From a virus (lineage: Duplodnaviria; Caudoviricetes), in the IMG/VR virus record IMGVR_UViG_3300024272_002379: DNA of 64,000 nucleotides; one strand, given 5' to 3'. Below are positions 57,113 to 57,817 of the stretch, in pieces; position 1 is the stretch's first letter, and each line of letters begins with the position of its first letter. Both the position numbers and the translations under genes were made by a program. Under the pieces are notes generated by a model. That model did no database searches. It had not been told where the DNA came from and saw nothing but the letters and a program-made list of their open reading frames with translations.

Positions 57113-57817
57113 TATTGTGCTTTAAAATGCACACATATATCCTGGTGAAGATTGTTTAATCAACATGCCAGGGCATATCTACAGTAAGTATGAAATAATA
57201 TTCGTTACAGGCTTAGCCAGTATGTTTATTATGTAATACTGAGACGTATGAGAACATGGGATACTTTGTTCGGTAGTGCGTTTAACGGATATAAATCAAG
57301 TCCTAAGGACGTGGTGAAGTTCTGTTATGAAGAAGGGAACCCTTCAAACGATTGATATGGCGTAACTTATACATAACGATTAGTGTGACATGCTTTTGGT
57401 GAACAGAATAGACGCTCTCTGTGAGAGAATAACCCTGGGAACTGGATGAGCTGGTAACTCATTACAGATGGCAGGGAATTACCAAACAAGTTCATTCGCT
57501 GTGATACCGAGACAACTCGGAGTATAACGAAAGCATAAGTCGCAAGTAGCCTAAGGCGATAAAAGAGAATATAACAGTGATAAGATGAATGAATGTATCA
57601 TCAAAACATATTCTGAACGATTCGGGTGAAAGCTGGAGGTGCCAATCCTTCATGGGTTTTAGACTGATAAAAGGCTGTTAACCTTTATCAGTTGGGGCAA
57701 GAAGTATGGAAGTCATGAGCCATGCTCAGACTTGTCTCCCCATTCGCATAATAAATCACAATGTATATTTTATAAGATGAATAAAAGTCTATATGGTGTG
57801 TGTTTTAAAGCACAATA
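57113..57817 (+). ncRNA. large structured ncRNA, ROOL-like candidate
   Basis: 705 nt, ORF-free, ends pair in a 22-bp helix with two G-U pairs; phage tRNA-cluster context; family assignment not verified. Confidence 0.6.

Follow-up and report, generated by a model that had tools for sequence, protein, structure and literature searches.

ROOL belongs to the small number of natural RNAs known to build closed cages without protein. The GOLLD RNAs, giant RNAs of phages and prophages located near tRNA islands and forming cages of 10 to 14 subunits, occupy the same genomic niche and are likewise ornate and end-clamped, but they constitute a separate family with another fold. Members of the ROOL family have a mean length of 581 nt (PMC5737381). 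Cage formation has been published for three ROOLs, and cryo-EM revealed hollow octamers or hexamers (PMC12286853, PMC12990946). The env-120 ROOL from cow rumen, 659 nt in size, forms an octameric cage of D4 symmetry (Kretsch et al. 2025, PMC12286853), the ROOL of Enterococcus faecalis is an octamer and that of Ligilactobacillus salivarius a hexamer (PMC12990946). In bridge B4, loop L8 pairs with the J6/8 strand (here J8/6) of the neighbouring subunit (PMC12286853), the env-120 elements being UUGGUA and UACCAA (PMC12286853 supplement). Bridge B6 is a symmetric L18:L18 kissing loop, with the sequence UUGCU in env-120, and covariation evidence for this inter-ring contact was not obtained in the structure paper (PMC12286853). 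For the reviewed ROOLs, the symmetric kissing loop is described as comprising 4 bp (PMC12990946). The linker of the solved ROOLs is disordered and lies within the cage.

The DNA analysed here is a stretch of 64,000 nucleotides (the window), which belongs to a 213,152-bp IMG/VR virus record estimated by CheckV to be 100% complete and possessing one ROOL copy. The genes of the window include those for major head, portal and large terminase proteins, as well as an RNA island (53640-58891), in which a tmRNA (53640-54015) and ten tRNAs (54889-58891) are all encoded on the plus strand. When the whole window was scanned with Rfam 15 (cmscan), positions 57117-57810 (+) matched RF03087, the ROOL family, with 231.3 bits (E 3e-51), i.e., 2.3 times the gathering score of 99.1 bits, and the match spans model positions 1-574 of 574 without truncation. 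We took the whole ROOL unit as 57113-57817 (+), bounded by the terminal helix P1 (Table 1). No other large-RNA family matched in the window; GOLLD was absent both from the scan of the whole window with all 4227 Rfam families at the gathering threshold and from a search of 56900-58000 at E <= 1. The conserved ROOL motifs GUGAAGA, GGAUAC, AAUAGACG, GUAUAA and AAGUAGCC are all found in the window, and so are UUCUGAA, GGUGAAAG, CAAUCC and GCUCAGACUU. Region 57113-57817 is therefore confirmed as a genuine full-length ROOL RNA, a member of an already known family. This bears out the first-pass annotation, which had called a ROOL-like giant non-coding RNA in a phage tRNA cluster and had named a search against the ROOL and GOLLD models as its check; the new class that it kept in reserve is ruled out by the RF03087 match.

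We determined that the score of the window ROOL is the lowest among the full-length ROOLs collected (231 vs 234–367 bits), because the model cannot accommodate two expanded P3 hairpins, in whose place there are insertions of 86 and 31 nt unalignable to RF03087. These two misfitting arms, together with a size of 705 nt against the family mean of 581 nt (PMC5737381), are what could be cited for a new giant RNA class merely resembling ROOL. Yet the full-length model match lies far over the curated cut-off, the motifs from AAUAGACG to GCUCAGACUU listed above are all there, and the relatives form a graded series down to 75% identity. The cmscan result and the model alignment refute this idea, and we consider its chances practically nil. 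Our preferred reading, to which we assign a probability of about 0.85, is that this gut jumbo phage of 213 kb has a functional gene for a ROOL RNA, with the expression, processing and cage assembly proposed below.

Table 1. Features of the ROOL locus and its surroundings (positions are those of the window)
Feature	Position	Strand	Basis or remark
tRNA-like element with ~60-nt variable-region insert	56833..56957	+	Direct reading; conserved in the sister phage G001
TAGAAG, degenerate -10 counterpart	57083..57088	+	Comparison with TAGAAT in G001 and L103
ROOL RNA, whole unit	57113..57817	+	cmscan RF03087, full model; MFE z -7.2
P1 5' strand (22 nt, bulged A57135, 5 nt)	57113..57140	+	Direct reading, duplex calculation, repeat search
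P2 hairpin with conserved GUGAAGA	57141..57172	+	High-posterior model alignment; covarying columns 52-57 with 86-91
Enlarged peripheral arm of P3 domain, 52 nt	57188..57239	+	86-nt insertion vs model; MFE hairpin
L8 loop UGGUAA	57452..57457	+	Pairs with 57479-57484; same elements in env-120
J8/6 strand UUACCA	57479..57484	+	Complementary to L8; covaries across family
A-rich variable linker	57556..57609	+	Matches the model's unstructured linker; unconserved in alignments
P18 stem (6 bp) with 10-nt L18	57704..57725	+	Loop AAG-UCAUGA-G; palindrome 57713-57718
P1 3' strand	57791..57817	+	Direct reading, duplex calculation, repeat search
Intrinsic terminator hairpin with U5	57820..57858	+	Loop holds -35 TTGACA of next promoter
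Consensus sigma-70 promoter TTGACA-17-TATAAT	57837..57865	+	Serves downstream tRNA-Tyr unit, not ROOL

The arms of P1, TATTGTGCTTTAAAATGCACAC (57113-57134) and GTGTGTGTTTTAAAGCACAATA (57796-57817), form 22 consecutive pairs; an inverted-repeat search places them 661 nt apart, with 20/22 positions being Watson-Crick at the DNA level. The two remaining pairs (T57128/G57802 and G57129/T57801) are G-U wobbles on the plus strand and A-C mismatches on the minus strand. Past the bulged A57135, the helix continues with 5 bp, one of them G-U, between 57136-57140 and 57791-57795. Among 15 inverted repeats with a spacing of up to 1.5 kb in the 64-kb window, P1 is one of the two best. By itself this repeat is suggestive, and it is decisive only in combination with the covariance-model match. 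Folding of the 705 nt gives a minimum free energy (MFE) of -205.9 kcal/mol and z = -7.2 for the plus strand, with the 22 P1 pairs uninterrupted, as compared with z = -4.8 for the minus strand, where P1 is broken exactly at the wobble positions. Coding potential was ruled out, the longest ORFs within the stretch amounting to 53, 42, 35, and 30 aa. The helix of 22 bp with two G-U pairs and 5 bp beyond a bulge, the wobbles that pair on the plus strand only, the absence of an ORF and the terminator directly downstream had all been described in the first-pass annotation, and we see each of them exactly as claimed. Independent duplex calculations showed that almost every other ROOL has a long terminal helix as well, with unrelated sequences; thus, P1 is conserved as structure and not as sequence.

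For comparison we collected 38 other ROOL matches, 36 of them full length. An RNAalifold consensus of 15 ROOLs, including that of the window, comprises 62 pairs, of which 46 display compensatory double changes. The locus combines its family membership with an intact covarying secondary structure, the P1 clamp and a terminator. The 52-nt arm falls into a gap in all other aligned ROOLs, P7 is a plain 5-bp hairpin, and the P18 stem pairs 57704-57709 with 57720-57725.

As for the inter-subunit contacts, the complementarity of L8 to J8/6 (the former pseudoknot) extends over 6 nt in the window ROOL. Among its relatives we found at least eight different complementary pairs, including UGGCA:UGCCA, UGAGA:UCUCA, UAGAA:UUCUA, UGUGC:GCACA, UUGAC:GUCAA, UGGAA:UUCCA, and UAGG:CCUA, which were read from folds of extracted segments, the loops being out of register in the MAFFT alignment. 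The B4 pairing is present in the window ROOL and covaries across the ROOL family. L18 is usually a 5-nt loop of the type N-N-G-C-U (UCGCU in most ROOLs), and in many relatives of the window phage it reads UAGCU, with the palindrome AGCU, or GACG. The canonical loop is not kept in the window ROOL, where a 10-nt loop carries a perfect 6-nt palindrome, UCAUGA, so that self-complementarity is retained and lengthened. A rebuilt loop of this kind would fit an L18:L18 contact that is kept and probably stronger. A similar loop, GUCAUGAC, occupies the L18 place of a distant ROOL from an Erysipelotrichaceae MAG (L085). The dimerisation initiation site of HIV-1 has a 9–10-nt loop, in which purines flank a 6-nt palindrome, and forms a 6-bp symmetric kissing complex. 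The window L18 has the same layout; the two RNAs are unrelated, and the likeness would be a mechanistic analogy only. The 10-nt L18 is unlike that of every structurally characterised ROOL and, being so atypical, it makes the inter-ring contact and the stoichiometry of the window ROOL not predictable. Both the 52-nt arm and the 10-nt palindromic L18 seem, from the sequences compared, to be unique so far.

The env-120 and window ROOLs belong to one Rfam family, are both of herbivore-gut origin and both exceed the 581-nt mean. They share the P19 loop type (UGAAUAAAAG), a variable A-rich linker and nearly alike L8:J8/6 elements (UUGGUA:UACCAA in env-120 vs UGGUAA:UUACCA). In contrast, L18 of env-120 is the 5-nt UUGCU instead of a 10-nt loop with a 6-nt palindrome, env-120 lacks the extra arm in the P3 domain, and its P7 differs from the plain hairpin of the window ROOL; also, its assembly was seen by cryo-EM, whereas that of the window ROOL is predicted by homology. 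The E. faecalis and L. salivarius ROOLs, in turn, share the family and the same interface set with the window ROOL, but they are chromosomal or megaplasmid copies of 550–580 nt from cultured Bacillota, whereas the window ROOL is 705 nt long and comes from a jumbo phage that is uncultured and lytic-looking. The 4-bp kissing loop (PMC12990946) fits the UAGCU (AGCU) class found in relatives of this phage.

The DNA of the phage was detected in animal faeces and bovine gut metagenomes. The window ROOL has no blastn match among 50,697 deposited phage genomes and megablast of the 14-kb neighbourhood matched tRNA genes only, which indicates that there is no cultured close relative. The phage tmRNA encodes the tag ANRPMLAAA and is positioned behind a perfect TTGACA-17-TATAAT promoter, the two together spanning 53495-54017. 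We also observed tmRNA or tmRNA-like genes no more than a few kb from ROOL in three other contigs (L005, L012, and L083). The closest sister phage, G001, has a capsid protein 94% identical to that of the window phage. The best-conserved island DNA between the two phages (56080-56527 vs L064 2675-3123, 79%) spans tRNA-Ser(GCU) and about 360 nt downstream; ARAGORN reports the G001 counterpart as 'tRNA-???' with a 4-base anticodon.

Upstream of the ROOL lies a tRNA-like element, which is not called by ARAGORN and which we found in only one other viral contig, that of G001 (L064 4058-4205, with an insert of 82 nt). Its acceptor, D and T arms are intact, and its acceptor and T stems show compensatory changes relative to G001. 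The anticodon loop has 7 nt in the window phage and 6 nt in G001; hence, the element is probably no decoding tRNA. We consider it a candidate processing signal for the ROOL precursor. It is directly followed by a hairpin, AUGCC-UAAC-GGCAU (56961-56978), which lacks a U-run and is identical in G001, with 16 nt invariant.

Downstream of the ROOL, the hairpin 57820-57855 (-12.9 kcal/mol, z = -5.7) is immediately followed by U5. Region 57820-57865 forms a compact stop-and-restart junction, in which the terminator loop contains the -35 element of the next promoter, a perfect consensus; G001 retains the same terminator/promoter design with a completely different stem. On the upstream side, both G001 and the nearest ROOL relative (L103) possess a TAGAAT -10 element about 25 nt upstream of P1, accompanied in G001 by a TTTACA -35 element at 17 nt and an upstream TG. 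The candidate -10 of the window reads TAGAAG and carries a 1-nt insertion relative to the relatives, so that the ROOL's own promoter may be dead. Judging from the sequence, the window ROOL probably depends on read-through from upstream promoters, candidates for which are located at 56279-56306 (10/12 matches) and 53495-53523 (perfect consensus). Contig assemblies of four gut metatranscriptomes showed no transcript from the locus itself. These assemblies do contain fragments of related ROOLs, e.g., one corresponding to 57367-57486 at 90–95%, as well as one 80-nt piece identical to the window ROOL; the contigs from RNA libraries represent 90–95% relatives, and such libraries may contain DNA.

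A search with a ROOL core pattern yielded 14 viral contigs, all of which carry full-length ROOLs (254–367 bits) located in tRNA islands, several at 0–25 nt from the flanking tRNAs. In prokaryote genomes the same pattern occurs at 19 loci. Nine are ROOLs, encoded exclusively by gut Bacillota and Mollicutes (Lachnospiraceae, Erysipelotrichia, Faecalibacillus, Acutalibacteraceae, and Bacilli MAGs), a distribution suggestive of the host group of the phage; the other ten, all outside the Bacillota (Chryseobacterium, Paludibacter, Calditrichota, and others), match by chance and have no ROOL. Phages with a capsid protein 83–94% identical to that of the window phage have genomes of 208–218 kb. Two of five complete relatives (G004 and G005) carry a ROOL at another position of the tRNA island and the remaining three (G001, G003, and G006) have none; ROOL is thus dispensable in this clade. 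A narrower, sub-lineage pattern detected 28 loci in metagenomes, eleven of them ROOLs of about 590–766 nt. The nearest (L103) is 75% identical to the window ROOL and has the same P1 and the same B4 pair, but it is devoid of the 52-nt arm and its L18 reads GACG. The other 17 of the 28 loci are not ROOLs by profile search, one of them (L101) having just 171 nt at a contig end.

These non-ROOL contigs (L096, L097, L099, L102, L104-L107, L109-L111, L115, L117, L119, L121, L122, and L101) share the exact motif TCAGACTT-N6-ATTCGCATAATAA, and some contigs with it are 140–228 kb long; the motif is probably a conserved piece of something else. Other RNAs were noted along the way. The ROOL-free phage G003 has a Group I intron match (L065 4065-4401, 52 bits, gathering score 50), the ROOL of a Mollicutes MAG has a RAGATH-33 RNA (L075 2360-2472) at a distance of about 1.1 kb, and a phage tRNA island with ROOL contains a borderline tRNA-Sec match (L008 8937-9027, 47.5 bits, cut-off 47).

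In G001 the flanks of the slot are syntenic, and the place of the ROOL (window 57110-57820) is taken by an element of about 660 nt (L064 4350-5015). It retains the first 14 nt of P1 (CTATTGTGCTTTAA) and a remnant of the P1 3' strand, AAGCACAA. The element folds with z = -4.9, its ends can form a long imperfect duplex (about -32 kcal/mol), and it has a GC-rich core with GNRA-type hairpins. We found no Rfam match at E <= 0.01 and, at E <= 10, no similarity to the ROOL profile; none of the four small ORFs of the element has a Pfam domain, blastn gave no match in phages, and there is no copy in 14 related records or in a second viral contig. A possible small ORF with a hydrophobic N-terminus starts at an ATG near L064 4442, after AAAGGAGAG. 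This singleton sequence may represent another end-clamped large RNA, or a small gene combined with a structured RNA. One could go further and regard the interval between the tRNA-like element and tRNA-Tyr as an exchange slot for end-clamped giant RNAs, and the L18 switch as covariation evidence for the inter-ring contact; we hold this to be rather unlikely. If it were true, the G001 element would be a new, ROOL-analogous RNA class, and the window L18, in which a 6-nt palindrome has taken the place of a GC-centred loop, would supply natural covariation in favour of the kiss between rings.

In the preferred reading, that of a functional ROOL gene, the host sigma-70 polymerase would transcribe the RNA from the plus strand, along with the tRNA and tmRNA genes nearby; with the ROOL's own -10 element weakened, this would likely occur by read-through, and transcription would end at the hairpin 57820-57858. 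Nucleases that process tRNAs would probably cleave the precursor at the upstream tRNA-like element, and trimming would then probably proceed as far as the 27-bp P1 helix. The homologous solved structures (env-120, E. faecalis and L. salivarius) suggest that copies would be joined into a ring via L8:J8/6 (UGGUAA:UUACCA) and two rings via the self-complementary L18, the predicted product being an RNA-only cage that is closed and hollow and has six or eight subunits. We may guess, with low confidence, that the cage plays a role in a conflict between phage and host over tRNA and translation, e.g., by holding or shielding an RNA or a factor.

The low score, the unique insertion, the non-canonical L18, the weakened -10 element and the lack of ROOL in the closest complete relatives (G001 and G003) could also befit a decaying relic, i.e., a ROOL by descent that is no longer functional and drifts in the phage. 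Against decay, all modelled helices are intact except for the two expanded arms, P1 is perfect at 22 + 5 bp, the 6-nt L8:J8/6 complementarity is retained, and the altered L18 is a perfect palindrome and not a random sequence. The fold z-score of -7.2 and the retention of P1 and B4 in L103, at 75% identity, argue in the same direction, and we find decay improbable. We judge it equally improbable that a real ROOL acts here as a monomer or in cis, e.g., as a structured spacer in the tRNA operon or a scaffold for its processing, and that the cage arises only in vitro. It is true that ROOLs sit inside tRNA arrays, in many cases only a few nt from a tRNA, that published work assigns no function to the cage (PMC12286853, PMC12990946), and that G001 has a different structured element in the slot. 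Yet the inter-subunit contacts covary, ROOL multimers persist at ~10 nM (PMC12286853), and some 19 conserved helices would be unneeded for a mere spacer.

The literature already covers the ROOL family, including its structure and its niche in phages and tRNA islands, and the window copy adds little on ROOL function. Its value is that of a naturally enlarged variant, suited to probing how far the cage contacts tolerate change. Similar ROOLs in gut Bacillota and Mollicutes give a hint to the likely host group, and the differences within this clade of ~210-kb gut phages, where ROOL may be present, missing, relocated or replaced, could tie ROOL to a phenotype.
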